From positions 16,842 through 80,841 of the forward strand of contig JAWOJJ010000147.1 in NCBI GenBank assembly GCA_046481675.1: 64,000 bases of DNA, in the 5' to 3' direction. Positions within the stretch are counted from its first letter, which is position 1. Every line of letters begins with the position of its first letter. The position numbers and the translations under genes are program-made. The notes beneath the pieces are model-generated. The model searched no databases and was not told the origin of the DNA. It saw only the letters and a program-made list of their open reading frames with translations. The stretch comes from Bacteroidales bacterium. Lineage in GTDB: Bacteria; Bacteroidota; Bacteroidia; Bacteroidales; UBA10428. This document shows, piece by piece, positions 17,201 to 60,009 of this stretch.

Positions 17201-17249
17201 TCATTGGTTATTGTTAATTGCTCATTGTTAATTGCTCATTGTTCAATAA
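17201..17249. repeat. Heptamer-phased tandem array (TCATTGT/TAATTGC alternating, 7 units)
   Basis: Read directly: tcattgg ttattgt taattgc tcattgt taattgc tcattgt tcaataa. It fills the gap between the coaD start (17191) and the stop of the next gene (17251). Confidence 0.8.
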
Positions 17250-17250
17250 A

Positions 17251-17784
17251 TTACTCTTCCCTCACCTGCAAGGCGCCAAATACAACCGGGGCATCAATGA
17301 TCAGGCTATTGAGCGAAGTTCCGAATGTATCCGTGGCAAATTGAATTGTTCCGAAAGCAACAGTATTGCCGTCGGGCATTGTAGCCCCGGCAAAAACGGC
17401 ATCTGATTTGATCTTTACCGGGGTGTTTTTGCTGATTCGGATGACTGAATTACCGAATACCGTATTGATCTTTATTCTAATGGGTTCATTGTCGGGAAAC
17501 TGCACATGTCTGAAATCATAAACCGACCTTCCGAAGATTACGTTGTATTCGGCGTTGTCCTTGGGCTGGTCGGTAACCGCCCGGTCATCAAACATAGTAT
17601 TGTGTTCATCCCTGTGAGCTTTGAACATCCAGGGTTTGCCAACCAACAGGCTTACCCCAACAAAAATCAGGAAGAGCGCAAAAAGCACCCCGAAAAGATT
17701 GACGTCAAAGACTACCCTAAATATGGCTGCCAACCCAATAAGAACCAGCAGCACACCCCAAAATAAACCTGGTGCCATTTTCAT
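17251..17784 (-). CDS. Membrane protein, LiaF-C/DUF2154-like
   Basis: 177 aa with two N-terminal TM helices followed by a beta-rich domain. Weak family resemblance. Confidence 0.4.
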   Translation of the reverse strand: MKMAPGLFWGVLLVLIGLAAIFRVVFDVNLFGVLFALFLIFVGVSLLVGKPWMFKAHRDEHNTMFDDRAVTDQPKDNAEYNVIFGRSVYDFRHVQFPDNEPIRIKINTVFGNSVIRISKNTPVKIKSDAVFAGATMPDGNTVAFGTIQFATDTFGTSLNSLIIDAPVVFGALQVREE

Positions 17785-17869
17785 ACAGTTTTAAGATTTA
17801 GGTACAAAATAGGGCAATGGCCCGCAGTTATAAAACAATATATCGGTAAGGCGCGCATTGGGATCGGTA

Positions 17870-20326
17870 TTAAGCGAGTTTCAACGGTTTATTAACCTTG
17901 TCCTGCAGCAGGGCCATTTCAAATACCTGCATGATGTTGCTGACATAGTGAAAAGTAAGGCCTTTAAGGTAAATATCATTGATCTCTGCGATATCCTTTC
18001 GGTTTTCCTCCGAGAGAATGATTTCCTTAATATCAGCACGTTTTGCAGCCAGAATTTTTTCCTTGATACCTCCCACAGGCAATACTTTTCCCCTGAGTGT
18101 AATTTCACCGGTCATGGCCAGGTTTTTCCTGACCTTTCTCTGGGTCATGGCCGAGGCTATTGCTGTTGCCATGGTGATTCCGGCAGAAGGCCCGTCCTTG
18201 GGAATGGCTCCTTCGGGAACATGAACGTGAATGTTCCAATTCTCAAATATTTCAGGAGCCAGATCAAGCAATTCACTGTGTGATTTTATGTATTCCAGAG
18301 CAATAACTGCGGATTCCTTCATCACATCACCCAGGTTACCTGTCAGAGTCAGTGTTCCTTTGCCCTTGCTCAAACTGGTTTCAATAAAGAGAATTTCTCC
18401 TCCACTGGCAGTCCATGCCAAACCTGTAACCACCCCGGCAAATTCATTGCCCTGGTATTTGTCTTTCGTATATTTCGGGGCACCTAAAATGGTTTCAACA
18501 TCCTTTTCCGAGAGTTTCTTGTTGAAGTTTTCACCCAGAGCTACCTTTTTGGCTATTACCCGCACCAGTTTTGCAATGGTTTTATCCAATTCGCGCACAC
18601 CCGACTCGCGGGTATAGTTTTCAACCAGGTATTCGAGCATTTTTTTGGAAAGTGAAACCGCGTTGGCTTTGAGCCCGTGATTCTTTAATTCCTTGGGTAC
18701 CAGGTGCCGGCGGGCAATCTCCACTTTTTCTTCAATAATGTAGCCGCTCACGTTAATCAGTTCCATCCTGTCGAGCAGAGCCGGATTGATTGTGCTGGTG
18801 GTATTGGCTGTGGCAATGAACAACGCCCTTGACAAGTCATATTCCAGTTCAATGAAATTGTCGTAAAACGCATTGTTCTGTTCCGGATCCAATACTTCAA
18901 GAAGGGCGGAAGAGGGGTCGCCGTGAAAATCCCTGCCCACCTTGTCGATCTCATCCAGTACAAAAACAGGGTTGGACGATTTTGCCTTTCTCAGGCTTTG
19001 CACTATCCGGCCCGGCATGGCGCCGATATAGGTTTTGCGGTGGCCACGGATTTCTGCCTCATCATGCAGTCCGCCCAGCGACATACGGATATATTTACGG
19101 TTTAGCGCCTTGGCAATGGATTTGCCGAGTGAGGTCTTCCCTACTCCCGGAGGGCCATACAAACAAATGATGGGCGATTTCATATCGCCTTTTAGCTTAA
19201 GTACAGCAAGGTGTTCAATAATCCGGTCCTTTACCTTTTCAAGGCCGAAATGATCCCGGTCAAGTATTCGCTGAGCCCTTTTCAGATCAAAGTTATCTTT
19301 GGTGAATTCATTCCAGGGCAGTTCGAGAAGTGTCTGCAGGTAATTCAGCTGCACAGAATACTCTCCGGTAGCCGGGTTGAGCCTGTTCAGCTTGTCTACT
19401 TCCTTATAAAAGACCGCACTGGTATCCTTGCCCCACTTTTTCTTATTGGCCCTTTTCTTCAACTCTTCTATTTCCTGTTCAAGTGGATTGCCTCCCAGCT
19501 CATCCTGAATGGTTTTCATCTGCTGGTGAAGGAAGTATTCACGCTGCTGCTGGTCCATATCAATCTTCACCTTGGTTTGAATGTCATGTTTCAGTTCCAG
19601 CATTTGCACTTCACGCGACAGGTATTGGAGCAACGCAGTGGCCCGCTTTTTCAAATTACTTTGTTCCAGCAGGTGCTGCTTCTCATGCATTCTGATATCG
19701 CTGTTTGAACTGATGAAATTGATCAGGAATGAAGAGCTTTCGATATTTCTCACAGCAAAGGATGTCTCCTGCGGTATGTTGCTTGAGAGCTTGATGATTT
19801 TAAGAGAAAGGTCTTTCAGGGAACCCACAATGGCTTCAAATTCATGATCCTTCCGGCGCGGTTTCACATCCTGGAGTTCTTCAACACGGGCTACATAATA
19901 GGGCTCTGTGGCTATGAACTCACTAATGGAAAATCTTTTTTTCCCCTGTATGATCACCGATGTAGAACCATCGGGCATTTCAAGTATCCTCAACAACTGG
20001 GCCATGGTGCCCACCGAGTACATCTCATCGGGTTCGGGATCATCCAGATTGGGATCGCGCTGCGCCACAGTTCCAATAACCTTGCCTTTCTGGTAGATCT
20101 CCCTGACCAGCTTCATCGATTTCTCACGTCCAACCGTTATGGGAATGATTACCCCGGGGAAAAGCACCGTATTTCTGAGTGGAAGTATCGGCAGTGAATC
20201 CGGAACCCTGGTCATATTAATACTCTCCTCATCCTCTTCGGAAATAAGGGGTATGAAATCCGTATCTTCGTTAACAGGTGATGAAAAAAACAAATCGTTT
20301 CCCTTCTTTTCTTGCAGTATGCTCAT
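17870..20326 (-). CDS. lon: Lon protease (endopeptidase La)
   Basis: 818 aa with Walker [10 protein letters not shown] and the protease active-site motif [14 protein letters not shown]. Confidence 0.95.
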
Positions 20327-20466
20327 AAAAAATTTCTTCCTCCTGAAAAATAAACAAAATAATAGACAAATTGTCAGTCAAAGTTGAATAATTCTGGTCA
20401 AACAATACAGACAATCTTTATGCCATGGTGTTCAAAGCCCGTAAAATAATTCATTCGCGCCCTGAT

Positions 20467-21663
20467 TTATTTCCGGTAAAGGCCGCTGCGTATGAAAATC
20501 TGTTCAATCATTTTTTTGTCTGCCTCAATGAGGCTCATGTTGTGCAGTTCCATGCCGATCCTGATGGTTTCAATGGCATTGGCCAAACGGTACGTTTCGA
20601 ACCCTGCAGCGCCACCCCAGGAAAATGAAGGAATGAAGTTGCCGGGAAATCCTGAACCGAAAATATTGGATGAAATACCAACAACAGTGCCCGTATTGAA
20701 CATGGTATTGATACCACAACGTGAATAGTCGCCCATGATCAGTCCGCAGAATTGCAAACCTGTTTCTTCCGCCTTACCTGTTGCATAATCCCATACCGGA
20801 AGCAGGGTGTAGTTATTCTTCAGGTTGGAAGTATTGGATCCTGCACCGAAATTGCACCACGTTCCAATTACTGAATTTCCCATATACCCGTCGTGTACCT
20901 TATAGGTATATCCCATAATCACGGAATTGGTAATTTCTCCGCCCACTTTGGAATAGGGGCCAACTGTTGTGGGGCCATAAATGCGTGTGCCCATTTTCAC
21001 TGAAGCACCCTCACACAAAGCAAACGGACCCCGGATCAGGGATCCCTCCATTGCAACAGCATTGTTCCCGATATAAACCGGTCCGGTAGAGGCATTGATG
21101 GTAACAAATTCCAGTGATGCCCCTGCTTCCACAAATACATTTTCCGGGCTGATCACCCTGTTGGTTGAACTCAGCGGGACAGATTTTCGCTTCCCGGTCA
21201 GCAGGCCGAAATCCGATTCCAGCTCAACACCATTCAGCCGGAAGATCTGCCAGGTCCTTGATATATTCCGGAATTCCGATTTGGCCTGAACAATCGCATG
21301 ACCTTTCGGAGGCAGTCCGCTGAAAAGCTCCACTGCAGTTTTATCCAGACATCCGGCAACAAAAAAAGAATCCTTCATTAGTACTTCTCCGCAGCGGAGT
21401 TGCATCACCTCATCCAAAAGCTGGCGGTTAGGTGTTACGCAACCATTAATCACCAGGTTTTCGTCTCCCAAAACCAGGGCAAATTTTTCCTGCAGGTAAT
21501 CCTGGGTTTTATGTGAGAATGGCCGACCGGTCCATTTTTCCCATTTCTCGCGAATGGTCAGAATGCCCACGCGTATTTCAGCAACAGGGCGTGTGTATGT
21601 AAAAGGGAGTAAGTGATCGCGCTGGTAGTCGTCGAAAAGGATGAAACTCTTGTTAACTGCCAT
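20467..21663 (-). CDS. GlmU-like putative sugar nucleotidyltransferase with left-handed beta-helix domain
   Basis: 398 aa. The C-terminal half shows hexapeptide-repeat periodicity (IG.N..I.....). The N-terminal part is nucleotidyltransferase-like. Confidence 0.55.
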   Translation of the reverse strand: MAVNKSFILFDDYQRDHLLPFTYTRPVAEIRVGILTIREKWEKWTGRPFSHKTQDYLQEKFALVLGDENLVINGCVTPNRQLLDEVMQLRCGEVLMKDSFFVAGCLDKTAVELFSGLPPKGHAIVQAKSEFRNISRTWQIFRLNGVELESDFGLLTGKRKSVPLSSTNRVISPENVFVEAGASLEFVTINASTGPVYIGNNAVAMEGSLIRGPFALCEGASVKMGTRIYGPTTVGPYSKVGGEITNSVIMGYTYKVHDGYMGNSVIGTWCNFGAGSNTSNLKNNYTLLPVWDYATGKAEETGLQFCGLIMGDYSRCGINTMFNTGTVVGISSNIFGSGFPGNFIPSFSWGGAAGFETYRLANAIETIRIGMELHNMSLIEADKKMIEQIFIRSGLYRK

Positions 21664-21726
21664 GATTAATAAACTGGTATATACAAATATACATCATTCC
21701 TCCGCTTTCGATAAGTTGATGATGCT

Positions 21727-21763
21727 AAAAAAAAACTCCGTTTCCACGGAAATGAAAACGGAG
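21727..21763 (-). terminator. Rho-independent terminator of rpmE2
   Basis: Stem CTCCGTTT/AAACGGAG. On the minus strand the hairpin is followed by a T9 run, about 30 nt after the L31 stop. Confidence 0.6.
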
Positions 21764-21795
21764 CTGATCTTATCGAACAACAACAATTCTGATTA

Positions 21796-22059
21796 CTATT
21801 TTTTCTTATCGTAGTGACTCTTGTAACGATTCATGAATTTATCCACACGTCCGGCAGTATCAACAAGCTTCATCTTTCCGGTATAGAAAGGGTGAGAAGT
21901 ATTGGAGATTTCCAGCTTGATAAGCGGATATTCCTTACCATCGTCCATCGTAACTGTTTCCCTTGAAGCCGCAGTTGAGCGGGTAAGAAAAGTATGTCCG
22001 TTTGACATATCCCTGAAGGCAACCAGCCTGTAACTTTCGGGATGTATTCCTTTTTTCAT
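21796..22059 (-). CDS. rpmE2: 50S ribosomal protein L31, type B
   Basis: [11 protein letters not shown]-terminus, SHPFYTGK motif, and no CxxC zinc knuckle. Confidence 0.9.
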
Positions 22060-22114
22060 TTTATTTTGCTTTATCTAATAATTCCAATTGGGGTGCAAAA
22101 ATAATGAATCCTTT

Positions 22115-23323
22115 TTAATCCTCAAAATTTCCCTGCTCCTTTTTCCTGTCCTTTTCAAATTTCTTGCTCAGGTTGTTGAACCTTTCGTAGGGGGCCTCAC
22201 GGTCAAATAAATACCGGAAAGTGATGTGGGTTTTTTCTTTAGTGGCGCCAAACTGAGTGTACATCTTGTTCACGGTAATGTTGTAATCGCCTACCCATGA
22301 GAGTTCAAGCTCTTCCATACCGTGTTCGCGCATGGTATCCGTTAGTTTAATATAAATGCCCCCTACCACACCGGTACGCTGAAATTCAGGTACTACCCCT
22401 GAAATTAGCAGCCTTCCGCGTGTTATGGCTCGTTTTTTATAATACAGCAGTTTGAGGATATTGATAAAACCGAGCCGTCCGTTTTTCAGTTTCCTGAATA
22501 CCTGGTTCATGTCGGGGAAAACAATTAAAAACCCGATAGGCTGCCCCTTATTGTAACCAAACCAGATGTATTTTTCATCGAGTATGGCTCTGGCTTCCTG
22601 GAAAATACCATAGAAATCTTCAAATTTCAGGGGCGTGTAGTTTTCCAGAAATTCTGACCATATTTTATTGTACATCACCACCATCTCACGGATGTATTTC
22701 TCAGCCTCTTTCATTTCGAGGTGTTTGAAAGAATAGTCGGGTTTACGCCAGAAACGTTCACCAAAATTCCGCATTTGTTCGGGATAGGGGCGACTGAAAT
22801 TATCGTGAAAACTGTATTGCTCAAAATAGGTTTTAAACCCATAGGTTTCAAAAAGCGTTCGGTAGTATGGAAAATTATAGGGCATGCCATAACCCTGTGG
22901 CATAAAACCTTCAACCAGCAAACCCCAGTTCATGAAATTTTCTCCATAATTTATAGGGCCATCCATGGCTTGCATGCCTTTTTCAGTAAGCCAGTTTTTA
23001 GCTGTATCAAAAAGCAGGTTAGCTGCCTGTTGATCGTTTATACATTCAAAGAAGCCCATGCCACCCGTTGGCTGTGGATTATGATTGGCTTTCCGCTCGT
23101 CGTAAAAGGCGGCGATCCTGCCAATCAGTAAATCCTGATCGTTCTTCAGAACCCACCTGCATGCATCGCCATGCTTAAATGAAGAATTCTTTTGGGGATT
23201 GAAGGTGCTTTCAATTTCCATATCCAAAGGACATGTCCAGTTTGGATCATTTTTATAAAGTATTTTAGGTACTTCCAGAAATTCCCTGATGGTCGTTTTG
23301 TCTTTTACTTCAATAAGCTTCAT
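22115..23323 (-). CDS. GNAT-like acyltransferase-fold protein, function unknown
   Basis: About 402 aa from MKLIEVKD (ATG 23323, 4 nt after the stop of the upstream gene). The C-terminal segment ISGVVPEFQRTGVVGGIY resembles a GNAT acetyl-CoA motif (Q/RxxGxG/A). Confidence 0.4.
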   Translation of the reverse strand: MKLIEVKDKTTIREFLEVPKILYKNDPNWTCPLDMEIESTFNPQKNSSFKHGDACRWVLKNDQDLLIGRIAAFYDERKANHNPQPTGGMGFFECINDQQAANLLFDTAKNWLTEKGMQAMDGPINYGENFMNWGLLVEGFMPQGYGMPYNFPYYRTLFETYGFKTYFEQYSFHDNFSRPYPEQMRNFGERFWRKPDYSFKHLEMKEAEKYIREMVVMYNKIWSEFLENYTPLKFEDFYGIFQEARAILDEKYIWFGYNKGQPIGFLIVFPDMNQVFRKLKNGRLGFINILKLLYYKKRAITRGRLLISGVVPEFQRTGVVGGIYIKLTDTMREHGMEELELSWVGDYNITVNKMYTQFGATKEKTHITFRYLFDREAPYERFNNLSKKFEKDRKKEQGNFED

Positions 23324-23327
23324 AGGT

Positions 23328-24797: not shown

Positions 24798-24971
24798 ATG
24801 TATAATTTACCCGATAAAAATAGCATACTTTTTTAAATAATCCCCTGACTAATATCCAGATTGACGGTTTGTTGAGAGGATATTGCAGCTTTTTTAGGGT
24901 ATTTATTTTTAAAACATCAAAAGATCATTAAATTTGCGCCTCCATCTTAAAAGGATGGACCTATTTTAAAT

Positions 24972-25046
24972 GGTGGTCGTAGCTCAGTCGGTTAGAGCGC
25001 CAGATTGTGGATCTGGAGGTCGCCGGTTCGAACCCGGTCTTCCACC
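24972..25046 (+). tRNA. tRNA-His (GTG), with atypical acceptor stem by hand fold
   Basis: Hand fold gives G-1, D arm GCTC/GAGC, anticodon stem CCAGA/TCTGG with loop TTGTGGA, and T arm GCCGG-TTCGAAC-CCGGT. The acceptor strands GTGGTCG vs CTTCCAC leave 5:68 (T.T) and 6:67 (C.T) unpaired. Confidence 0.8.
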
Positions 25047-25273
25047 CAATTAGCCTGAAGCAATTCAGGCTTTTTTTATATTAGCCGAACTTGAAACGCT
25101 AAAGACCGGGTGAGAAGTTTATCCCGCTGCAGCGTAGCGGAAGCGGGAAACCCGGTCTTCCACCCAATTAGCCTGAAGCAATTCAGGCTTTTTTTGTATT
25201 AGCCGAACTTGAAACGCTAAAGACCGGGTGAGAAGTTTATCCCGCTGCAGCTTAGCGGAAGCGGGAAACCCGG
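25031..25273 (+). repeat. 118-bp tandem duplication starting inside the tRNA-His T arm (2 full units + 7-bp third initiation)
   Basis: Units 25031..25148 and 25149..25266 differ at 2 of 118 positions. AACCCGG recurs at 25267. Each unit holds the tRNA 3' end, the terminator hairpin and a CCGCTGC-agc-GTAGCGG hairpin. Confidence 0.9.
25052..25077 (+). terminator. Rho-independent terminator after tRNA-His (second copy at 25170..25195)
   Basis: AGCCTGAA-gcaa-TTCAGGCT followed by T7. Confidence 0.7.
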
Positions 25274-25277
25274 GCGA

Positions 25278-26054: not shown

Positions 26055-26320
26055 GATGTCAATTGGTGTAACTCTGTTTAATTAACTTATTTCAGATTGT
26101 TATTATTATACTGATTCCCCATAATTTGGTTATCAATCAGTCTGCAAATATATAATCTATTCCAATTGTTGACCAGCCTGAACCGGTATAAAATATCCCC
26201 GCCATTATTTTGCAGTAACCGGAAATCAGAACCGCCTGATTCTTACAGCCATCGTAAAAGCTGATTACCTTCAGATTCCTGATATACCGACAGATCCCCG
26301 GCCTATTTACAGTCCGTAAC

Positions 26321-34891: not shown

Positions 34892-35467
34892 TCAGTACCT
34901 TTTGCTGATAACACCCCAGTCGAGTATGTTCCAGAATGCCTGCAAATAATCGGGACGCTTGTTCTGATAATCCAGGTAATAAGCATGCTCCCAAACATCG
35001 CAGGTTAAAAGCGGAGTCAGACCTTTCCTTAAAGGATTTCCGGCATTCGGCTCCTGAATAATTCCGAGAGAACCGTCAGGCTTTTTCACCAGCCAGGCCC
35101 AGCCTGAGCCAAACAAGGTGACAGCCGACTTGGTAAATTGCTCTTTAAAAGCGGCAAAGGAACCGAAAGCCGAGTCAATGGCAACAGCCAAGGCTCCTGA
35201 CGGCTCCCTGGAACCCGAAGGAGAAAAACTCTCAAAATAAAAGGTATGATTCCAAACCTGGGCACCGTTATTGAAAATACCTCCGTCAGCCTCACTGACG
35301 ATCTTTTCGAGAGAGGCGTTTTCAAAAGGAGTTCCGGGAACCAGGTTGTTCAGGTTGTTTACATAAGCCTGATGATGCTTCCCATAGTGAAAATCAATTG
35401 TCTGTTTGGAAATAAAAGGCTCCAGTGCATCAGCGGCATACGGTAATTTAGGTAATTCAAACGGCAT
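34892..35467 (-). CDS. sodB: Superoxide dismutase, Fe-type signature
   Basis: 191 aa with NNGAQVWNHTFYFESF and EPNAGNPL...[13 protein letters not shown]. The Gln in the AQ context and the NAG segment are the Fe-SOD pattern. Confidence 0.9.
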   Translation of the reverse strand: MPFELPKLPYAADALEPFISKQTIDFHYGKHHQAYVNNLNNLVPGTPFENASLEKIVSEADGGIFNNGAQVWNHTFYFESFSPSGSREPSGALAVAIDSAFGSFAAFKEQFTKSAVTLFGSGWAWLVKKPDGSLGIIQEPNAGNPLRKGLTPLLTCDVWEHAYYLDYQNKRPDYLQAFWNILDWGVISKRY

Positions 35468-35533
35468 GGTTTCTTGTTTTAAATAATTATATCCCTAAGA
35501 TACAACTATTTTCAGTTTTATCAAAACCAGCCA

Positions 35534-35638
35534 AACTCCGAACTCCGAACTCCGAACTCCGAACTTCGAACTCCGAACTCCGAACTCCGAACTCCGAACT
35601 CCGAACTCCGAACTCCGAACTCCGAACTCCGAACTTCT
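35534..35638. repeat. Heptanucleotide tandem array (AACTCCG)n, 14 units + degenerate 15th
   Basis: Counted unit by unit: 13 perfect AACTCCG, unit 5 is AACTTCG, and the terminal unit is AACTTCT. It occupies about 60 percent of the 176-bp spacer between the two sod genes. Confidence 0.95.
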
Positions 35639-35643
35639 CAATA

Positions 35644-36246
35644 TTACACCCCCCTGAATCGCTTATCCACCTCTTTCCAGTTTACCACATTCCAGAATGC
35701 AGCAAGGTACTCGTTTCTGCGATTCTGGTATTTCAGGTAGTAGGCATGTTCCCATACGTCAACGCCAAGAAGGGGAGTACCTTTCAGTTCGGTAACATCC
35801 ATCAGCGGATTGTCCTGGTTGGGTGTGGAAGAAATCTTCAGCTCATCTCCGGTTTTTACCAGCCAGGCCCAGCCCGATCCAAACCGCGTCATTGCCGCAT
35901 TGGTAAAAAGTTCACGGAATTTCTCAAACGATCCAAAATACCTGTTGAGCGCGTCCAACAATTCGCCACCGGGCATTCCGCCCGATCCGGGAGCCATTAT
36001 TTCCCAAAACAGGGTATGATTGTAATGACCGCCTCCATTGTTGCGAACAGCCACAGGCAGTTTTGAGATGTTTGCCATCAGGTCGGCAAGACTTTTGTTC
36101 TCCCATTCAGAGCCTGCCAGGGCATTGTTCAGGTTGGTTACGTATGCCTGGTGATGCTTCGTATGATGTATTTCCATGGTACGTGCATCTATATGCGGTT
36201 CAAGTGCCGCATATTCATATGATAATTTAGGTAATTCGAAAGCCAT
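35644..36246 (-). CDS. sodA: Superoxide dismutase, Mn-type signature
   Basis: 200 aa with [16 protein letters not shown] and [10 protein letters not shown]...[20 protein letters not shown] and the Gln in NQD are the Mn-SOD pattern, though it could be cambialistic. Confidence 0.9.
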
Positions 36247-45175: not shown

Positions 45176-47115
<1,940 letters not shown>

Positions 47116-47152: not shown

Positions 47153-47163
47153 ATGGATAGTCT

Positions 47164-47235
47164 GTACGGACAGGTCGCGACCTGTCCGTACGCGACCTGT
47201 CCGTACGCGACCTGTCCGTACGCGACCTGTCCTTA
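47164..47235. repeat. 28-bp perfect palindrome whose right arm is reiterated 4x (15-bp period)
   Basis: GTACGGACAGGTCG|CGACCTGTCCGTAC (47164..47191), then G+CGACCTGTCCGTAC twice more and a fourth copy with one mismatch. The last unit overlaps the stop codon of the response regulator (47233..47235). Confidence 0.9.
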
Positions 47236-47922
47236 CGATTCAATCAATTTAAATCCCTTCCCGTGTACATTGATGATCTGCACCCTCGGATCGTCTCTCA
47301 GGTACTTTCTCAGCTTGGCAATATAAACATCCATACTGCGTGCATTGAAGTAATTGTCATCCACCCATATGGTCTTTAGCGCAAAATTCCTGTCGAGCAC
47401 CATATTCTTATTCGCACACAATAACTTCAACAGATCGGCTTCCTTGGTGGTGAGCTTTTGCTCGTCTTTTCCAAACTTCAGGAGCTGGGTATTCGGCAAG
47501 AACATATAATCGCCAATCTTATATTCATTTTGATGGGCCCCGGTGGCATCCTTTTTCGTACGGCGTATCACGGCTTCAACCCTGAAAAGCAGTTCCTCCA
47601 TGCTGAAAGGTTTGCTGATATAATCATCAGCTCCCGCTTTGAAGCCTTCAATAACATCCTCCTTCAGCGACTTTGCGGTTAGAAAAATAATCGGAATCTC
47701 CGCGTTGGTCATTCGGATTTCCCTGGCCAGTGTAAGTCCGTCTTTTACAGGCATCATCACATCCAGGATACAAAGGTCATAATGGCTTTTTACAAAGCTC
47801 TTATAAGCCTTTTCTCCGTTAATAAACCAATCCGCATCATAGGATTTAACCAGGAGGTACTCTCTCAACAGCATCCCCAGGTTCTCATCATCCTCGGCAA
47901 GTAAAATTTTAATCTTTTGCAT
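47233..47922 (-). CDS. Response regulator transcription factor (OmpR/PhoB winged-helix type)
   Basis: Receiver domain (DDENLG...LDVMMP...K) plus a C-terminal winged-helix domain. It overlaps the kinase gene by 14 nt. Confidence 0.9.
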   Translation of the reverse strand: MQKIKILLAEDDENLGMLLREYLLVKSYDADWFINGEKAYKSFVKSHYDLCILDVMMPVKDGLTLAREIRMTNAEIPIIFLTAKSLKEDVIEGFKAGADDYISKPFSMEELLFRVEAVIRRTKKDATGAHQNEYKIGDYMFLPNTQLLKFGKDEQKLTTKEADLLKLLCANKNMVLDRNFALKTIWVDDNYFNARSMDVYIAKLRKYLRDDPRVQIINVHGKGFKLIES

Positions 47923-49624: not shown

Positions 49625-49724
49625 GAATATTATAAAAGCCGCTCGTTTTTAGCATAATAATTGCATTCATTATGTATTTTTATATCCTGAATAAGTAACG
49701 GTGGCAGTATAAGGATGTAAACGG

Positions 49725-50531: not shown

Positions 50532-50610
50532 ATGATGCAATCAGAATTCATATATTTTTGTAGCCTTTAGGAATTTTTTACGTTAAACTGTTGAACAGAA
50601 AATTTGGTTT

Positions 50611-51303: not shown

Positions 51304-51306
51304 TCC

Positions 51307-51711: not shown

Positions 51712-51713
51712 CC

Positions 51714-52157: not shown

Positions 52158-52218
52158 GTGAATTGTTAAGCAGGCCTAAAGTTATGAAAAAGCTTTCATA
52201 CAAACTCAGTTTACCTGG

Positions 52219-52947: not shown

Positions 52948-52951
52948 AATA

Positions 52952-54205
52952 TTAAGCAGAGTATTTTCTGAATATAACCGAAGTATTATGGCCTCCGAAA
53001 CCAAAGGTGTTGCTTAAAGCCACATTAACGGTGCGTTTCTGGGCAACATTGAAAGTAAAATTCAGTTTGGGATCGATTTCCTCATCCTGGATTTTAAAAT
53101 TAATGGTGGGAGGAATAATATCGTACTTGGTAGCCAAAATTGCAGCAATGGCTTCAATGGCCCCGGCGGCTCCCAGCAGGTGACCGGTCATGGATTTTGT
53201 AGAACTGATATTCAATTTATAGGCATGTTCTCCAAAAACACTCCGAATGGCTCTCGACTCAGAAATATCACCCAGCGGTGTTGCTGTGCCATGAACATTG
53301 ATATAATCAAGATCCTCAGGCTTTAAATTGGCATCTTCCAAAGCATTCTTCATCACCAGCATGGCACCAAGTCCATCCGGATGAGGTGCAGTCAGATGAT
53401 AAGCGTCAGCAGACAAACCCCCACCGATCATTTCGGCGTAAATTTCAGCTCCACGGCTTTTGGCATGCTCATATTCCTCGAGGATCAAAGCTCCGCCGCC
53501 TTCGCCCAGAACAAATCCGTCGCGGGTTTTATCAAACGGACGCGATGCTGTTTTGTATTCAGCATTGTTGGTGGAGATTGCATGCATGGCATTGAATCCA
53601 CCGATGCCCGGCTCGCAGACCACTGCTTCAGCCCCTCCGGATACAAACATATCAGCCTTGCCCAACCGGATCAGGTTGTAGGCATCGATAATAGCGTTAG
53701 TGCCAGTGGCACATGCGGATACTGTTGCATAATTAGGGCCTCTGAAGCCATACTTGATTGAAATATGCCCTGCTGCAATATCCGAAATGATCTTGGGTAT
53801 AAAAAAAGGATTAAACCTGGGTATTTTGTTGCCCTTAAAATAATCCCCCAATTCGCTTAAAAAAGTATTGAAACCACCAATGCCCGAACCAAAGATTACT
53901 CCCACCCTATCCTTGTTGATCTTCTCAAGATCAATGCCCGAGTCTTTAACTGCTTCGTCAGCAGCAACCAGGGCATATATCGTAAACAGATCCAACTTCC
54001 TGGCCTCTTTCCGGTCGAAGTAATCCTCGGCTTTGAAGTTTTTAACTTCACAGGCAAATTTGGTTTTGAAATTCGTGGTGTCAAAACGAGTAATCAGGTC
54101 AGCCCCACTAACACCGTTAACTAAATTATTCCAGTATTCATTAACTTCATTTCCCAATGGGGTTACCGCACCGAGTCCGGTAACAACAACTCGCTTCAAC
54201 TCCAT
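52952..54205 (-). CDS. fabF: Beta-ketoacyl-ACP synthase II
   Basis: Active-site Cys context VSACATG, HGTATPLGD and GHLLGAAG. Confidence 0.95.
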   Translation of the reverse strand: MELKRVVVTGLGAVTPLGNEVNEYWNNLVNGVSGADLITRFDTTNFKTKFACEVKNFKAEDYFDRKEARKLDLFTIYALVAADEAVKDSGIDLEKINKDRVGVIFGSGIGGFNTFLSELGDYFKGNKIPRFNPFFIPKIISDIAAGHISIKYGFRGPNYATVSACATGTNAIIDAYNLIRLGKADMFVSGGAEAVVCEPGIGGFNAMHAISTNNAEYKTASRPFDKTRDGFVLGEGGGALILEEYEHAKSRGAEIYAEMIGGGLSADAYHLTAPHPDGLGAMLVMKNALEDANLKPEDLDYINVHGTATPLGDISESRAIRSVFGEHAYKLNISSTKSMTGHLLGAAGAIEAIAAILATKYDIIPPTINFKIQDEEIDPKLNFTFNVAQKRTVNVALSNTFGFGGHNTSVIFRKYSA

Positions 54206-54231
54206 AAATGACAGTGTTGGTAAAAAACAAA

Positions 54232-54471
54232 TTACTTCTTTACGTTCTCATCAATGTACTTGATTGCGTCGCCAACTGTGGCAATGTTCTCAGCAGCATC
54301 GTCGGGAATTCCGATATTGAACTCCTTTTCAAATTCCATGATCAACTCAACGGTATCCAGTGAATCAGCACCCAAATCGTTGGTAAAACTGGCTTCGGGG
54401 GTTACTTCGCTTTCATCAACACCTAATTTGTCAACAATAATAGCTTTTACTCTAGATGCAATGTCTGACAT
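54232..54471 (-). CDS. acpP: Acyl carrier protein
   Basis: 79 aa with the phosphopantetheine site [13 protein letters not shown]. Confidence 0.95.
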
Positions 54472-54632
54472 AATACCTAATTTTAATTATTACTTTAATT
54501 TAAAAAAATGTTGTGCAAAGAAAATGCATTCATAATGAAAAAACAAACAAATTTTCAGATTTCTTTAAAAATCGGCTTTTAATTCGTTAAATCTCAGTTA
54601 ATTTGCGGTGATTTACAACCCATTATAAAACC

Positions 54633-55214
54633 ATGTACAAGCTTGCTATTTTTGCCTCAGGATCAGGTTCTAACGCCGAAAATATCATCCAACACTTTCA
54701 GCATCACCCCTCAATAGAAGTAACCTGCATATGCACCAACCGGCCCGACGCTTATGTAATTGAACGAGCGCGTAAATATAAGGTACCGGTACTCGTTTTT
54801 ACCCGCGAAGAATTCTATCAGTCGGAAATAGTTCTTGACTTTTTGCACCGCAACCAGATCAATTTCATTGTACTCGCCGGATTTCTCTGGCTGGTTCCGG
54901 AATACCTGATCAACAGTTTTCCCAATAAAATAGTCAATATCCATCCGGCCCTCCTGCCCAAATACGGGGGCAAGGGCATGTATGGCAACCGGGTGCACCA
55001 GGCCGTTATCGATCATCATGAAACCCTTTCAGGCATCACCATCCACCTGGTAAACAGCGAATATGACCGGGGCGATACCCTGTTTCAGGCCACCTGCAAG
55101 GTTGACCCCTCTGATACAGCAGAATCACTGGCTTCTAAAGTGCATCAACTGGAACATACCCATTTCCCGGGCATTATTGAACAGGAGGTAATGAAAAGGA
55201 TGAGTTCTGAATGA
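54633..55214 (+). CDS. purN: Phosphoribosylglycinamide formyltransferase
   Basis: FASGSGSNAENI and NIHPALLPKYGGKGMYG motifs. Confidence 0.9.
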   Translation: MYKLAIFASGSGSNAENIIQHFQHHPSIEVTCICTNRPDAYVIERARKYKVPVLVFTREEFYQSEIVLDFLHRNQINFIVLAGFLWLVPEYLINSFPNKIVNIHPALLPKYGGKGMYGNRVHQAVIDHHETLSGITIHLVNSEYDRGDTLFQATCKVDPSDTAESLASKVHQLEHTHFPGIIEQEVMKRMSSE

Positions 55215-55870
55215 ACTATATCGACATACATACCCATTCTTATTATCAGGACCCGGAGGTTACCCTGTTACTGAATACCTTTCCCGAAGAAACCAACAAA
55301 ACCGGCCATCCGGTTATGCTTTCCATGGGTCTTCATCCCTGGCACATCAACGAAAACAATTGGGAGGACCTCGTGGAAACAATCAGGCAATCGGCATCAA
55401 CCAACCCCCATGTTGCTGCCATTGGTGAAACAGGTCTCGACAAGACCATTTCCTGCCCTTTATCCGTGCAGGAGAAAGTATTTCTTGCCCAATTACTGGT
55501 TGCTGAGACTTACCGTAAACCGGTGGTGATTCATTGCGTCCGCTCATACAGCGAAATGCTGGCCCATCGTAAAAAATCGGATCAGCGCATACCCTGGATT
55601 TTTCACTGGTACAATGCCGACGAACAAATTGCCCGCGAACTCATTCGTAAAAACTGCTACCTGTCATTCGGGCACATGCTGTTCAACGACAAGAGCAAGG
55701 CTTTCCGGGTTTTTAAAACCACCCCCTTTGAGCATATTTTCTTCGAAACAGATGACGCAGGCTACACCATCAGGCAGGTATATGAACAAGCCGCCTTGTT
55801 GAAAAATTTGCAGGTCACCGACCTGAAAAAAAAGATAATTGATAATTTCGCCCGTTGCTTTCAAAAATAA
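55211..55870 (+). CDS. TatD-family metal-dependent hydrolase
   Basis: N-terminal IDIHTHS, GETGLD and VIHCV motifs. It overlaps purN by 4 bp. Confidence 0.8.
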   Translation: MNYIDIHTHSYYQDPEVTLLLNTFPEETNKTGHPVMLSMGLHPWHINENNWEDLVETIRQSASTNPHVAAIGETGLDKTISCPLSVQEKVFLAQLLVAETYRKPVVIHCVRSYSEMLAHRKKSDQRIPWIFHWYNADEQIARELIRKNCYLSFGHMLFNDKSKAFRVFKTTPFEHIFFETDDAGYTIRQVYEQAALLKNLQVTDLKKKIIDNFARCFQK

Positions 55871-55874
55871 GTTC

Positions 55875-56591
55875 ATGGAACATTGGTTAAGCCGCTCCGA
55901 ACTGCTGATCGGCAAAGAAAATATGGATAAACTGGCTGGCGCGCATGTGCTGGTGGCCGGACTTGGAGGTGTGGGAGGATATGCTGCCGAACAGCTTTGC
56001 AGGGCCGGTGTCGGAACACTTACCTTAATTGACGGTGATGAGGTCAGTGTTACCAATTTGAACCGGCAAGTCATTGCACTCAAAAGTAACGTGGGAAAAC
56101 CTAAGGCACAGCTCTTTGAGGAAAGGCTCAGGAACATCAACCCGGACATCAAATTGAACATCATCGGAGAATACCTGAAAGAAGACCGGTTTGCCGCCAT
56201 TTTGGATCAGAAGTTCGACTTCGTTGTGGACGCCATAGACACACTCACTCCAAAAGTTGCCCTGCTTGCCGAAACCGTTAAAAAGGGTTATCCTGTGGTT
56301 AGCTCCATGGGATCAGGCGGTAAGTTGTCGCCCGAACGAATTGAAATTGTTGATATTTCCGAAACAAACCATTGTAAATTCGCCTACATTGTCAGGAAAT
56401 ACCTGCACCGCCAGGGTGTTTACAAAGGCATTACCGCTGTTTATTCACCTGAGCCGGTAAGTAAAAAGGCCATTCGTGAAGTTACCGGAGAGGAAAACAA
56501 AAGATCGGTGGTGGGCACCATTTCGTACATGCCCCCGGTATTTGGATGCTTCTGCGCTTCGGTGGTGATCCGACACCTTATTAATGGTTAA
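55875..56591 (+). CDS. tcdA: tRNA threonylcarbamoyladenosine dehydratase (ThiF/E1-like)
   Basis: VAGLGGVGGYAAEQLCRAGVGTLTLIDGDEVSVTNLNRQ Rossmann/E1 motif. ATG 55875 is preferred. Confidence 0.8.
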   Translation: MEHWLSRSELLIGKENMDKLAGAHVLVAGLGGVGGYAAEQLCRAGVGTLTLIDGDEVSVTNLNRQVIALKSNVGKPKAQLFEERLRNINPDIKLNIIGEYLKEDRFAAILDQKFDFVVDAIDTLTPKVALLAETVKKGYPVVSSMGSGGKLSPERIEIVDISETNHCKFAYIVRKYLHRQGVYKGITAVYSPEPVSKKAIREVTGEENKRSVVGTISYMPPVFGCFCASVVIRHLING

Positions 56592-56616
56592 TCGTATCAT
56601 CTACGACTTTTTCTCC

Positions 56617-56651
56617 CCGTCTTGGTTCTTGGCTCTTGGCTCTTGATTCTA
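56617..56651. repeat. Heptamer array CCGTCTT GGTTCTT GGCTCTT GGCTCTT GATTCTA (left member of an inverted pair)
   Basis: Read directly. Its reverse complement recurs at 59115..59149. Confidence 0.85.
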
Positions 56652-56739
56652 ATCGTAATTCCTGTTAATAAAATTTTGCAACCATCCCTCCCGCTGCAAC
56701 CTTTTTATCAAGTAGTTGTCTTTTGGAAAAACCCAAACT

Positions 56740-59082
56740 ATGAAATCATCTTTACTGACAATTGCCCTGTTGCTCTGCATCTGTTTATCAATTGAATCTC
56801 AATCTATTACTCAAACCATCAGGGGAACCGTGCTCGAAATGAACACAGACATCCCCGTGGTGGGCGCCTCTGTGGTTATCCTGAATTCCAAACCTTTAAC
56901 AGGAGCTGTCACCAACGAAAAGGGAGAATTCCGGCTCGAAAAAATCCCTGTTGGCAGGCATACGCTTCAGATCAGCTTTATTGGTTTTAAAACCGTTACA
57001 CTTCCGGCACTCGACCTGATGTCGGGCAAGGAACTGGTGCTCAAGATCGCCCTTGAGGAAAACATCATCGAAACCAGTGAAGTGGTGATCAAGGCCAACG
57101 GCCGAAAAGACAGGCCCCTGAACGATATGGCCATGGTAAGTGCCCGTTCGTTTTCGGTTGAACAAACCGAAAGATACGCGGGCAGTTGGGGCGATCCGGC
57201 CAGAATGACACAAAACTTTGCCGGCGTGATGATCGGCTCCGACCAGGTCAACGCCATCATCATCAGGGGGAATTCTCCATCGGGACTGCTGTGGAAACTC
57301 GAAGGAGTGCCTATTCCCAATCCCAACCATTTCGGTGATATGGGTTCCACAAGCGGTCCGGTAAGCATGCTGAACAACAATGTGCTGAATAATTCCGACT
57401 TTTTCAGCGGGGCCTTTCCGGCGCAATACGGGAATGCCGTTTCCGGTGTTTTCGACCTGGGCCTGAGAACCGGAAACAACGAAAAACATGAATTCCTTGG
57501 CCAGGTTGGTTTTAATGGTTTCGAACTGGGTGCTGAAGGACCTTTTTCATCCAAATCAGATGCCTCTTACCTGGTCAACTACCGGTATTCCACCATGGGT
57601 GTTATGGATGCCCTGGGAATTGACATAGGCGTGGGTGCCATACCTTATTACCAGGACCTGGCGCTCAAGATCGACCTTCCGGGAACCCACCTGGGAAGAT
57701 TTACACTCTTTGGCATGGGAGGTAAGAACAGCATTACTTTTGATGATGAAAATGAGTACAACAGGCGGTATAATACGGATTTTGTTTCAAAAGTAGGGGT
57801 ACTCGGACTCACCCACATCATCCGCTCGGGAGAAAACTCCAGGTTCAAAACAACGGTTGCCGGAACCTTCCACGGAAGCAGCACATTGAGCGATACGTAT
57901 AAAAACGACATCCTGGAGGATTCCTATGGCGATGATTTTACCGAATCGGGACTCATGATATCGGAAGAATTCAGAAGCAAGCTGAACGCCCGGGATAATT
58001 TGATTATTGGCGTAACGGCAGAAGCCCTCAGCATGAATTATCTCGACAGCATGTTCATTGATGATGCGGGAATATACGTTCACCATTTTGACATGGAAGA
58101 CAACCTGGTTCTCTTTCAGGGTTACGGACAATGGCAGCATAAATTCTCAAACCGGGTATCCATGGTGTCCGGACTGCATTTTCAGAAAACCAGCATCAAT
58201 GATGAGCTGGCCATTGAGCCCCGCTTTTCACTGAACTGGCAATTGAACGAAGCACAGTCGGTAAGCCTGGGATACGGATTGCACAGTCAGATGCAGGCCC
58301 GAAAAGTGTACTTCAGGGAAGTACTCATTGACACCCTTCAAGGAACCTATGTCAAACCCAACAAAAACCTTGATTTCTCAAAAAGCCACCATATCGTCAT
58401 CGGGTATAATCATTTGTTTAATGAAAATCTGCGGTTAAAAACAGAAGCATACTACCAGGCCCTGTATGACCTGCCTGTAAAAAGTTATCCGTCAACCATT
58501 TCAACCATCAATTCCGATGCCGGCTATTACGGTATGAACCTGGACAGCCTGGTCAACAAAGGCACAGGTAGGAACCTGGGCATAGAGATCACCCTGGAAA
58601 GATTCCTGACCGGAAATTATTATTACCTGGCTACCCTGTCGCTATTCGACTCGAAATATAAGGCCAGCGATGGCAAGCTGCGTAACACAGCCTATAACGG
58701 GAATTACGTGCTGAACCTGCTGGGTGGTTATGAATTCAACCTGAAAAACCAGAATTCAATAACTGTCGACCTGAAATTCACCTGGGCAGGGGGTATGCGC
58801 ACCATCCCGATTGATTTTGAGAAATCGCAGGAGGAAGGGGCAACTGAATACGACTTTGATCATGCCTTTGAGGATGCCCAGTCGGATTACTACAGGGTCG
58901 ACCTGCGCATAGCCTACCGGATGAACCGCGCCAAATACAGCCAGGAATGGGCATTGGATATAACCAACCTCACCAATCACAAAAACCGGTTCTTCGATAT
59001 GTACAACCCCGATACCGGAAAAGTAGAAGAAGCCTCACAAATGGGAATTGTTCCGGTTATGATGTGGCGAATCAGGTTTTGA
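56740..59082 (+). CDS. TonB-dependent receptor with N-terminal CarboxypepD_reg-like domain
   Basis: Signal peptide from MKSSLLTIALLL, a carboxypeptidase-regulatory-like domain (IRGTVLEMNTDIPVVGASVVIL...GEFRLEKIPVGRHTLQISFIGF), a plug-like region and a long beta-barrel ending ...MMWRIRF (terminal aromatic). Confidence 0.8.
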   Translation: MKSSLLTIALLLCICLSIESQSITQTIRGTVLEMNTDIPVVGASVVILNSKPLTGAVTNEKGEFRLEKIPVGRHTLQISFIGFKTVTLPALDLMSGKELVLKIALEENIIETSEVVIKANGRKDRPLNDMAMVSARSFSVEQTERYAGSWGDPARMTQNFAGVMIGSDQVNAIIIRGNSPSGLLWKLEGVPIPNPNHFGDMGSTSGPVSMLNNNVLNNSDFFSGAFPAQYGNAVSGVFDLGLRTGNNEKHEFLGQVGFNGFELGAEGPFSSKSDASYLVNYRYSTMGVMDALGIDIGVGAIPYYQDLALKIDLPGTHLGRFTLFGMGGKNSITFDDENEYNRRYNTDFVSKVGVLGLTHIIRSGENSRFKTTVAGTFHGSSTLSDTYKNDILEDSYGDDFTESGLMISEEFRSKLNARDNLIIGVTAEALSMNYLDSMFIDDAGIYVHHFDMEDNLVLFQGYGQWQHKFSNRVSMVSGLHFQKTSINDELAIEPRFSLNWQLNEAQSVSLGYGLHSQMQARKVYFREVLIDTLQGTYVKPNKNLDFSKSHHIVIGYNHLFNENLRLKTEAYYQALYDLPVKSYPSTISTINSDAGYYGMNLDSLVNKGTGRNLGIEITLERFLTGNYYYLATLSLFDSKYKASDGKLRNTAYNGNYVLNLLGGYEFNLKNQNSITVDLKFTWAGGMRTIPIDFEKSQEEGATEYDFDHAFEDAQSDYYRVDLRIAYRMNRAKYSQEWALDITNLTNHKNRFFDMYNPDTGKVEEASQMGIVPVMMWRIRF

Positions 59083-59083
59083 G

Positions 59084-59149
59084 GGCAGTGGTAGTGGCAG
59101 CGGCAGCAGTAAACAAGAGCCAAGAGCCAAGAACCAAGAGTCAAGACGG
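59084..59149. repeat. Hexamer array (GGCAGT GGTAGT GGCAGC GGCAGC) followed by heptamer array AAGAGCC AAGAGCC AAGAACC AAGAGTC AAGACGG
   Basis: Read directly. It begins 2 nt after the receptor stop codon. The heptamer part (59115..59149) is the inverted partner of 56617..56651. Confidence 0.85.
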
Positions 59150-59196
59150 ACACGTTAACAGTCAAACCCCAGCACACATAACCCAATACACACACA

Positions 59197-59231
59197 TCCA
59201 GTATCTATTATCCAGTATCTAGTATCGTGTA
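59197..59231. repeat. Heptamer-phased array TCCAGTA TCTATTA TCCAGTA TCTAGTA TCGTGTA
   Basis: Read directly. The 14-bp unit TCCAGTATCTAKTA occurs twice, followed by a degenerate unit. Confidence 0.75.
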
Positions 59232-59318
59232 TACTACGGCAGGTGAATAGTATTTTGATGCTGGTATACAGTAGGTGCTGAAATATTCCTACATTTATGC
59301 ATCAAATTCTGGTCGTAA

Positions 59319-59879
59319 ATGGATAAGGAAGTAATCGCCGCAATAGCACTTGGAATAGGTTTAAGCGCCAGCGCCGGTTTCAGGGTTTTTGTTCCCCTTT
59401 TCGTAGCCAGCATTGCAGCGCATACCGGATTCCTGCCTGTAAACGAAGGTTTTCAATGGCTGGCCGGCTGGCCTGCCATGATCTGTTTTGGAACTGCTAC
59501 CGTTGCAGAAATTCTGGCTTATTACATACCGGTTGTCGACAATTTACTCGACGGCATTACCACACCGCTGTCGGTTATGGCCGGAACCCTGATGCTGACC
59601 TCTGTGTTGCCCATTGACAATGAATTTCTCAAATGGATCAGCGGTTTTGTGTTTGGGGGCGGCACAGCAGCCACCATACAGGCCGGGAGCGTTCTGACGC
59701 GACTTGCCTCTACCAAATTAACCGCCGGGGTGGGAAATCATGCAGTGGCTACCGGTGAGCACACCGCCGCCATTGGTACTTCGCTTCTTTCACTGGTGAT
59801 TCCTGTAATTATTGCCATCCTGGTATTGGTACTTCTTATTTTCATCCTGCTGAAAGTGAAGAAAAAGATAACACATTAA
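59319..59879 (+). CDS. DUF4126 family membrane protein
   Basis: 186 aa. The N-terminus IALGIGLSASAGFRVFVPLFVASIA and the overall 4-5 TM layout match DUF4126 as I remember it. Confidence 0.7.
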   Translation: MDKEVIAAIALGIGLSASAGFRVFVPLFVASIAAHTGFLPVNEGFQWLAGWPAMICFGTATVAEILAYYIPVVDNLLDGITTPLSVMAGTLMLTSVLPIDNEFLKWISGFVFGGGTAATIQAGSVLTRLASTKLTAGVGNHAVATGEHTAAIGTSLLSLVIPVIIAILVLVLLIFILLKVKKKITH

Positions 59880-59886
59880 GAAGCCA

Positions 59887-59907
59887 TTAGCTCTTAGCTC
59901 TTAGCTA
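59887..59907. repeat. Heptamer array TTAGCTC TTAGCTC TTAGCTA
   Basis: Read directly, 8 nt after the DUF4126 stop. Confidence 0.8.
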
Positions 59908-59923
59908 CTTTGCCCGCCGAAGC

Positions 59924-59943
59924 CCTGCCTGCCGGCAGGCAGG
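59924..59943. terminator. 20-bp perfect GC-rich palindrome CCTGCCTGCC|GGCAGGCAGG (possible terminator)
   Basis: Perfect palindrome followed by TTTA. It lies between two heptamer arrays. Confidence 0.4.
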
Positions 59944-59960
59944 TTTAGCGCAGGAGGGTT

Positions 59961-60009
59961 GGCTCGAAGCTCACAGCTCGAAGCTCTTAGCTCGCAGCTC
60001 GCAGCTATT
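59961..60009. repeat. Heptamer array GGCTCGA AGCTCAC AGCTCGA AGCTCTT AGCTCGC AGCTCGC AGCTATT
   Basis: Read directly: 7 units with a conserved AGCTC core. This array generates the spurious N-terminal extension MARSSQLEALSSQLAA of ORF 59959. Confidence 0.85.

Follow-up and report, generated by a model that had tools for sequence, protein, structure and literature searches.

Heptanucleotide arrays of varying copy number in the intergenic spacers of an uncultured Bacteroidales lineage

Short tandem arrays with a 7-bp period occupy several intergenic spacers in a 64,000-nt stretch of contig JAWOJJ010000147.1 from an uncultured Bacteroidales bacterium; this whole stretch is referred to here as the window. 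Arrays of this period are present in excess, they lie between genes, they change copy number in place and they are gained and lost between species. The explanation favoured here, with a probability of about 0.7, is that they are slippage-type bacterial micro- or minisatellites produced under a lineage-wide 7-bp bias. Seven loci had been proposed in the initial annotation of this DNA, and Tandem Repeats Finder (TRF), run on the window, detects an array at each of them with scores of 40-197. All seven are intergenic, as had been claimed.

17201..17249, minus strand: AACAATG AGCAATT (sense), 2.4-3.4 copies; TRF 17210-17243, period 14 with 100% match and 2.4 copies, period 7 with 74% match
35534..35638, minus strand: AACTCCG (sense AGTTCGG); TRF 35534-35635, 14.6 copies, 97% match
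56617..56651, plus strand: TCTTGGY, 4 copies; TRF 56620-56645, TCTTGGC, 3.7 copies, 94% match
59114..59149, plus strand: CAAGAGC, 4.7-5 copies; TRF 59114-59146, 4.7 copies, 88% match
59196..59231, plus strand: ATCCAGT/ATCTAKT, degenerate; TRF 59196-59226, 4.4 copies, 79% match, and 94% at period 14
59880..59907, plus strand: TTAGCTC, 3-4 copies; TRF 59887-59906, 2.9 copies, 100% match
59959..60010, plus strand: AGCTCNN, 7 copies; TRF 59962-60006, GCTCGCA, 6.4 copies, 78% match, with periods 14 and 21 detected too

The last of these arrays is overlapped by an open reading frame (ORF) at 59959-60888. By sequence comparison, this ORF is a spurious TTG extension of a CAAX-protease gene whose true start is ATG 60043, since that start is conserved and the protein read from it is 92.5% identical to its ortholog.

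The period was assessed by a scan of periods 2-24 at a score of at least 13, with identical treatment of second-order Markov shuffles of the window. The scan returns five arrays of period 7 and three of period 14 in the window and zero at periods 2-6 and 8-13, while the shuffles give an expectation of 0-0.03 arrays per period; among the short periods, the excess in the window is confined to 7, 14 and 21. Autocorrelation of bases across the 35 intergenic spacers likewise peaks at lags 7, 14, 21 and 28, and after masking of the seven arrays no residual or degenerate 7-periodicity is left in these spacers. Because the peaks vanish on masking, the signal comes from discrete arrays in 6 of the 35 spacers and not from a diffuse periodicity.

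The same preference was followed into relatives, which were pooled by group (L001-L061 are the labels of the retrieved relative and contig loci). Arrays were distributed by period as follows.

Close clade with the window, 178 kb: 16 arrays at period 7, 6 at 14, 4 at 21, at most 2 at each other period
Intermediate relatives, 98 kb: 8 of period 7, 5 of period 14, 0 of period 21, 4 of period 8, at most 1 of the others
Distant relatives, 150 kb: 1 of period 7, 2 of period 14, 0 of period 21, at most 1 of each other period

The 7-bp bias belongs to a fairly narrow lineage. The lack of an excess at 7 bp, named beforehand as the outcome that would count as refuting, is not the case in the clade sample, which combines 64 kb of the source with ~115 kb of relatives and holds 16 arrays of period 7. 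The constancy of period across differing units, remarked on in the initial annotation, can be regarded as a property of the lineage, as the clade relatives have a matching period-7 excess. The closest homologues of the TonB-dependent receptor encoded in the window are in uncultured Bacteroidales metagenome-assembled genomes (MAGs), at 96, 95, 94, 93, 91, 82, 72 and 70% identity, and a metagenome scan with the receptor protein yielded 5 loci only, none closer than 70% identity.

Outside the lineage, unrelated IMG/VR contigs (GC 0.34-0.68), each chosen because it contains an array of one given heptamer, carry other arrays that are again mostly of period 7, with 32, 7, 12 and 13 period-7 arrays in four contig sets and at most 10 of any other period. 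The period preference is independent of the unit sequence. It is also not absolute: in L058, five copies of the 8-mer GTCAGTGA adjoin four of TCAGTGA, and in L056 five copies of the 8-mer GAGCATCC adjoin eight of AGCATCC, with a core in common in each case. The period can thus drift, and such 7-mer and 8-mer neighbours built on a common core speak for a preference and against a fixed ruler or template.

It is highly improbable that the arrays are chance matches or products of short-read assembly. The source is a MAG, two contigs break at or inside arrays (L027 and L035), and misassembly could have affected the exact number of copies in the 102-bp array. Against this, the shuffles expect practically no arrays at all, and separate assemblies from NCBI, JGI and Logan contain the same arrays at orthologous positions. 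The array between the two superoxide dismutase genes is identical at every base in two assemblies of one species, L033 (a MAG record whose name cites SRP294416) and L034 (Logan run SRR8925788). The arrays are thus not assembly artefacts, and this alternative is effectively refuted.

In-place change in copy number is documented at three orthologous spacers. The 35534..35638 array begins 8 nt past the stop codon of the upstream Fe/Mn superoxide dismutase (SOD) gene and precedes conserved promoter-side sequence of the second SOD gene. Both the stop-codon side and the promoter side (GGCTGGTTTTGATAAAACTGAAAATAGTTGTATCTT...) of this SOD1-SOD2 spacer are conserved and the number of AGTTCGG units varies, from ~2-3 degenerate units in L032 and 2 plus an inserted palindrome in L031, through 5 with variants in L033 and L034, to 14.6 in the window. 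The second example is the spacer between a LiaF-like membrane protein gene and a coaD-like gene, where the 17201..17249 array occupies the entire 59 nt from stop (17251) to start (17191). Here a 14-bp double unit, AACAATGAGCAATT, is present in 2.4 copies in the window versus 4.4 in L036, which represents the closest species at this locus, with identical flanks, and four assemblies of a more distant species (L037-L040) have an unrelated 134-nt spacer with no array. The third spacer, between a DUF4126 gene and the CAAX-protease gene, consists entirely of NNAGCTC or TTGGCTC heptads; L001 has ~6 of them, L027 6-13, the window 11, L006 12.6 and L002 at least 15. The L002 array is organised in a 28-35-bp higher-order block, CTCACTT CTCACAG CTCACAG (CTCACAG) CTCGTAG. 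No array is found in this spacer in L026, and the L007 sequence ends just past the stop codon.

The two SOD genes are themselves a tandem pair of paralogs (200 aa and 191 aa; minus strand, 34892-36246). The pair is kept in all close relatives, and the longest heptamer array lies exactly between the two genes.

Gain and loss are equally evident between species. The 59196 array, which is located upstream of the DUF4126 gene (start 59319), has an ortholog in L002 and is represented by at least 7.4 ATCCAGC copies in L027, a contig that starts inside the array; it is missing from L001, L006 and L004. The 56617 array is missing from L001, L002, L003 and L017, with different units (ACCCAGC, ATCCAGC and CCAATGG) at its position in L004 and L005, and the 59114 array is missing from L001, L002, L004 and L006. 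The closest species (~96% protein identity) is without three of the window arrays, 56617, 59115 and 59196, and all seven differ between two genomes with ~95-96% identical proteins. This pattern of birth, expansion, decay and loss is that of micro- and minisatellites. Stepwise change in place between conserved flanks is what slippage or unequal exchange predicts, and its occurrence at three orthologous spacers goes against the setting aside of "simple slippage" in the initial annotation.

In the mechanism proposed here, replication slippage or unequal exchange would both create long simple-sequence repeats (SSRs) with a 7-nt unit and alter them where they stand, in spacers able to accommodate additional DNA. 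Starting from a proto-repeat of only 2 units, an array would be amplified by single units or by blocks of 2-5 units, and such block-wise growth would give rise to the 14-, 21- and 28-35-bp higher-order periods. Point mutations would yield variant units that are then amplified themselves, and arrays would in time decay or disappear. Because a 7-nt unit shifts the reading frame, arrays inside ORFs would not survive. That 7 is preferred to 5, 6 or 8 would reflect the replication or repair machinery of the lineage, along lines that Mrazek 2007 put forward for many prokaryotes, and not the sequence of the unit. Most arrays are probably neutral filler, although a few may have side effects, such as the hairpin after the first SOD gene and the long-range inverted repeat at the receptor gene described below.

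The heptamer motifs had been described as unrelated, which does not hold for all of them: a single NNRGCTC family accounts for four of the seven. TTAGCTC (59887), AGCTCNN (59961) and TTGGCTC form a single family and occur side by side within one array in relatives. Two arrays on opposite sides of the TonB-dependent receptor gene (56716-59082) are reverse complements of one another, with 26/26 nt of the core identical: the one at 56617-56651, in the spacer that follows the stop codon of a ThiF-family gene (56591), and the one at 59114-59149. The resulting inverted repeat is 29 nt long and 97% complementary, with a perfect core of 26 nt and arms 2462 nt apart. Its arms, one on each side of the receptor gene, agree in how their variant units succeed one another (GGT, GGC, GGC) and in having CCG as a flank.

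The surroundings of the receptor gene contain several further repeats. One is an array with a shorter unit, read from the sequence.

59084..59110, plus strand: hexamer array GGCAGY, 4.5 copies

This hexamer array is directly 3' of the receptor stop codon (59080-59082), adjoins the CAAGAGC array and is also found in L002, L004 and L006. On the upstream side, an 8-bp direct repeat, TAATCGTA (window 56588-56657), overlaps the ThiF-family stop codon and has its second copy 61 bp downstream, so that the two bracket a ~60-bp segment with the 56617 array; in L001 the 8-bp sequence is present once (TAATCGCA) and the array is missing. The pair could be a target-site-like duplication or a coincidence. 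Some 30-50 nt upstream of the receptor start (window 56690-56725), a motif TGCAACC(T/C)T...(N)...TTGTC is kept in L001-L007, L016 and L017, down to 70% protein identity, while the remainder of the spacer turns over; it is probably a promoter or regulator site. A MITE-like insertion that starts with GTAGCCGTCAAGCTAAG and ends with inverted TAGCTTGACGACTA is located just 3' of the receptor stop codon in three relatives (L002 ~8240-8440, L004 6245-6445 and L006 ~12400-12730), the position of the CAAGAGC array in the window, and in L004 there is an apparent duplicated target, GGTTTTAG.

A perfect 26-nt inverted copy with its flank and variant order in common is what might be seen if the arrays were dispersed STRR-like families, with only a few kinds of unit in existence and each of these at many loci, that had spread by a copying process, for which ectopic gene conversion, template switching and a small mobile element are candidates. 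The occurrence of the AAGAGCC and AGCATCC classes at non-orthologous positions in the clade points the same way, as does the TAATCGTA direct repeat around a segment that is missing from L001. Exact arrays of window units are also present in unrelated IMG/VR contigs, with (AACTCCG)4 in 6 contigs and 16 stretches of (AGCATCC)3, 21 of (AAGAGCC)3 and 9 of (ACAGCTC)3. However, two composition-matched heptamers, counted in IMG/VR as a control for unit sequence, are arrayed there too, in 2 and 7 stretches; the contrast of 9-21 with 2-7 stretches is suggestive and involves too few units to call those of the window special. Some sharing of units is expected by chance, because each heptamer has 14 rotation and strand equivalents. 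With respect to MITE features, the inverted copy and the 8-bp direct repeat are present, yet the arrays have neither terminal inverted repeats nor common flanks, and three loci grow from a local proto-repeat in place with no insertion. Spread by copying is judged unlikely as the origin of the arrays.

Several of these observations nevertheless weigh against slippage as a complete account. Local slippage cannot make an inverted 26-nt copy, so some copying between sites must occur. Unit classes recur at non-orthologous sites (2-3 in the clade): the AAGAGCC class (TTGGYTC) is found at three sites, and AGCATCC (ATCCAGY) is upstream of the receptor gene in L005, while the window, L002 and L027 have it ahead of DUF4126. 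The identity of the L033 and L034 arrays indicates that arrays of ~5 copies are not hypermutable on short timescales. The clade sample covers only ~180 kb, part of a genome. Finally, slippage as such would leave the choice of 7 over 5 or 8 unexplained, and for that step the argument draws on a published hypothesis. In the form in which it is relayed by later papers, the one published proposal found, that of Mrazek 2007, is that the polymerase is in contact with ~7 nt of DNA and that slippage in steps of this length is favoured as a result (PMC4679880, PMC4692102).

A second element enters the same spacers. The 59880 and 59959 arrays are a single array split by an insertion of ~51 bp (59908..59958), which carries a perfect 20-nt palindrome, CCTGCCTGCC|GGCAGGCAGG (CCTGCCTGCCGGCAGGCAGG), at 59924-59943 with ~15 nt of flank on each side. 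The insertion is present in the window, L002 (9204-9223) and L006 (~13430-13455), and the array is uninterrupted in L001 and L027. In L031 (~9890-9912) the array of the SOD spacer is broken up by a palindrome of nearly identical sequence. The palindrome has the look of a small element of REP or terminator type, one that has landed in these spacers at two unrelated loci. A related hairpin is found beside arrays upstream of the receptor gene in L005 (~155-178).

The gene context of the arrays raises the alternative that they are functional cis-elements with a shared reader, whose copy number tunes expression or mRNA fate, possibly as expression "rheostats" in the manner of the 7-bp hmw repeats of Haemophilus influenzae, where control of expression by heptamer repeats is an established precedent. 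Four of the seven begin 1-8 nt after a stop codon, including the TTAGCTC array, 1 nt past that of DUF4126, and the remainder are in likely 5' leader or promoter regions. The AGCTCNN array is upstream of the CAAX-protease gene. One array is upstream of a gene for a TonB-dependent receptor of the outer membrane, a class typical for phase variation. A reader might be a single-strand nucleic-acid-binding protein covering ~7 nt per monomer, of the CSP or S1 type, as suggested by MacGregor 2015 for the TAACTGA repeats (PMC4679880).

At the RNA level, the sense strand of the SOD array, (AGUUCGG)n, is predicted to form a long imperfect hairpin of 100 nt (-55 kcal/mol, z = -8.9) because UUCGGA self-pairs through G-U pairs, and a terminator-like palindrome is found at the matching position in L031. 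The other six arrays show no predicted structure, with z near 0, and no Rfam family matches any of the seven. An RNA structure common to the arrays was consequently rejected, since the SOD array alone folds, and a conserved terminator role for the latter was rejected on the grounds that the folds of four orthologous spacers are inconsistent. The two arrays that flank the receptor gene, if on one transcript, would pair in a predicted duplex of -55 kcal/mol.

The units of the seven arrays differ, and no consistency was found in their sense-strand orientation, composition or stop-codon content. A role as a stop-codon trap, with a unit ending all three frames, was rejected as AGTTCGG, TCTTGGC, CAAGAGC and AGCTCGC have no sense-strand stop triplet. 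Moreover, array presence varies among species of identical gene order, housekeeping genes (coaD-like and SOD) are flanked as readily as surface genes, and the identical copy number in L033 and L034 speaks weakly against hypermutability at 5 copies. Nothing was found to point to a sequence-specific reader, and the remark in the initial annotation that three units equal two helical turns is arithmetic alone and draws no support from the analysis. A role as functional cis-elements is quite unlikely for the arrays as a group.

It is more doubtful still that heptamer arrays are both actively copied between sites in this clade and, in some cases, selected as cis-elements. Were this true, the Bacteroidales would possess an STRR-like, functionally used repeat system in place of neutral slippage products. 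The 26-nt pair could then clamp the 5' and 3' ends of the receptor mRNA and make an RNase III-type processing site, or could let the receptor gene invert, and the (AGUUCGG)n hairpin could serve as an expandable 3' stabiliser or terminator between the SOD genes.

Other repeats were observed elsewhere in the window and in the retrieved contigs. A tRNA-His gene (24973-25047) is followed by a 118-bp unit in 2.1 copies, 98% identical (25031-25273), which starts within the 3' end of the tRNA (AACCCGGTCTTCCACCCA), so that this end and a segment with a hairpin and T-run are duplicated downstream; the duplication could be att-like or the remnant of an integrated element. An ORF that ends at 47115 is a probable groEL-type chaperonin gene from its synteny with L031. 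After this gene and its terminator there is a hairpin, TACGGACAGGTCGCG/CGCGACCTGTCCGTA (47160-47237), the 3' arm of which is tandemly amplified as a 15-bp unit (4.1 copies, 97% match), an array grown from the arm of a palindrome. A 21-bp palindromic unit, CGCAATGCATTGCGTCTCTAC, is present twice at 63556-63597, and similar GTAGAGACGCAA...TTGCGTCTCTAC hairpins are repeated in a spacer of L004 (~7150-7240); their sequences probably define a REP-like family.

In two virus-labelled IMG/VR contigs with a GC of ~0.64, L058 (1-8336) and L061 (1-8319), nearly every spacer is full of heptamer or octamer arrays. These arrays are of many units, 16 in 8.3 kb of L058 and 11 in L061, and represent a far denser form of the same phenomenon. 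The ORFs of both contigs gave no match in the phage database or PHROGs and no informative Pfam match. Lastly, L026 contains a gene with bAvd / 23S_rRNA_IVP domains (11624-11980) ~1 kb downstream of DUF4126 that has no counterpart in the window; bAvd-type accessory proteins are found in diversity-generating retroelements.

The dominance of 7-nt units among the intergenic repeats of bacteria has been known since 2007. The present lineage offers a clean natural series in which the same spacers hold 0, 2, 5 or 15 copies in species that are ~4-30% diverged. Blocks of higher order, one inverted copy and the insertion of a palindromic element into arrays are part of it. Such a series could serve to measure expansion dynamics from metagenomic reads. 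On a practical level, short-read contigs break at the arrays, ORFs gain spurious N-terminal extensions from them, as at 59959-60042, and they could act as strain markers. The inverted copy at the receptor gene and the repeated landing of the palindromic element in arrays are extras to this series.

Heptameric STRR arrays are classic in heterocystous cyanobacteria, where the families STRR1 (CCCCAGT), STRR2 (TTGGTCA) and STRR3 (CAACAGT) each occupy ~100 dispersed loci per genome. The arrays described here resemble them in that several families of heptanucleotide unit are tandemly amplified between the genes of one genome; the phylum differs, and CCCCAGT, TTGGTCA and CAACAGT have no tandem copy in the window. 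In Haemophilus influenzae, 7-bp repeats in the promoters of hmw1A and hmw2A control expression, at a single defined locus and with variation within the host. The array upstream of the receptor gene is similar in that it is an intergenic 7-bp SSR ahead of a surface-protein gene, and hmw is a possible model for tuning by copy number. Unlike the hmw repeats, most arrays of the window follow stop codons or adjoin housekeeping genes.

The long SSRs with units of 5-11 nt surveyed by Mrazek 2007 are the closest in character. As that survey is represented in later papers, heptanucleotides are the most abundant class of long SSR in most of the prokaryotic genomes covered (PMC4679880, PMC4692102). On the same representation, the likeness extends to intergenic arrays that have their period and not their sequence in common, the dominance of 7-nt units, a sporadic, lineage-specific distribution and rapid variation in length between relatives. 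A long SSR in that sense has a unit of 1-11 nt and exceeds the length that chance would give in its genome. The sample analysed here shows excess length, over-representation of period 7, non-coding location and length polymorphism, as for a heptanucleotide SSR in Mrazek's sense. It differs in that the top genomes of the survey, as far as it is described, are Burkholderia, cyanobacteria, actinobacteria and Xanthomonas, while here the host is an uncultured Bacteroidales and stepwise expansion is documented at three orthologous loci.

The initial annotation was aware of no equivalent description for Bacteroidota. MacGregor 2015 (PMC4679880), which treats TAACTGA and accompanying heptamers in Bacteroidetes, Beggiatoaceae and cyanobacteria, reports intergenic assemblages of heptamer repeats in the Bacteroidetes Gramella forsetii, Aequorivita sublithincola, Elizabethkingia anophelis, Flexibacter litoralis and Paludibacter propionicigenes. 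Close relatives lack those assemblages in the corresponding spacers, and contigs often break off within them (PMC4679880); both features recur in the present arrays, along with the intergenic location and the use of several heptamers. TAACTGA repeats mostly precede start codons by a few nt. The arrays here show no such consistent placement, and four of the seven come just after stop codons. The units also differ (AACTCCG, NNRGCTC, ATCCAGY and AACAATG/AGCAATT), and TAACTGA itself occurs in the window as 5 single copies, never in tandem. A CAGT/CAGC core is seen across window units, STRR units and TAACTGA, the contigs concerned being non-independent and chosen for having arrays.

The GGGAATC arrays of Xanthomonas occupy conserved loci at which their length differs from species to species, and some are arranged as inverted pairs (Rehm 2015, PMC4692102). 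The intergenic location, the variation in length and sequence between close species and the occasional inverted pairs of the Xanthomonas and Nostoc GGGAATC/GGGGAYT repeats (PMC4692102) are all matched here; in contrast to those G-rich, G-quadruplex-capable units, the units of the window are without G-runs. GGGAATC, GGGGAYT and the hmw unit ATCTTTC are not tandem in the window. Given that the named units are never tandem there, the arrays are members of a general class and of no sequence-defined family. That class is already known, in some Bacteroidetes too, and this uncultured Bacteroidales lineage is a further case of it.

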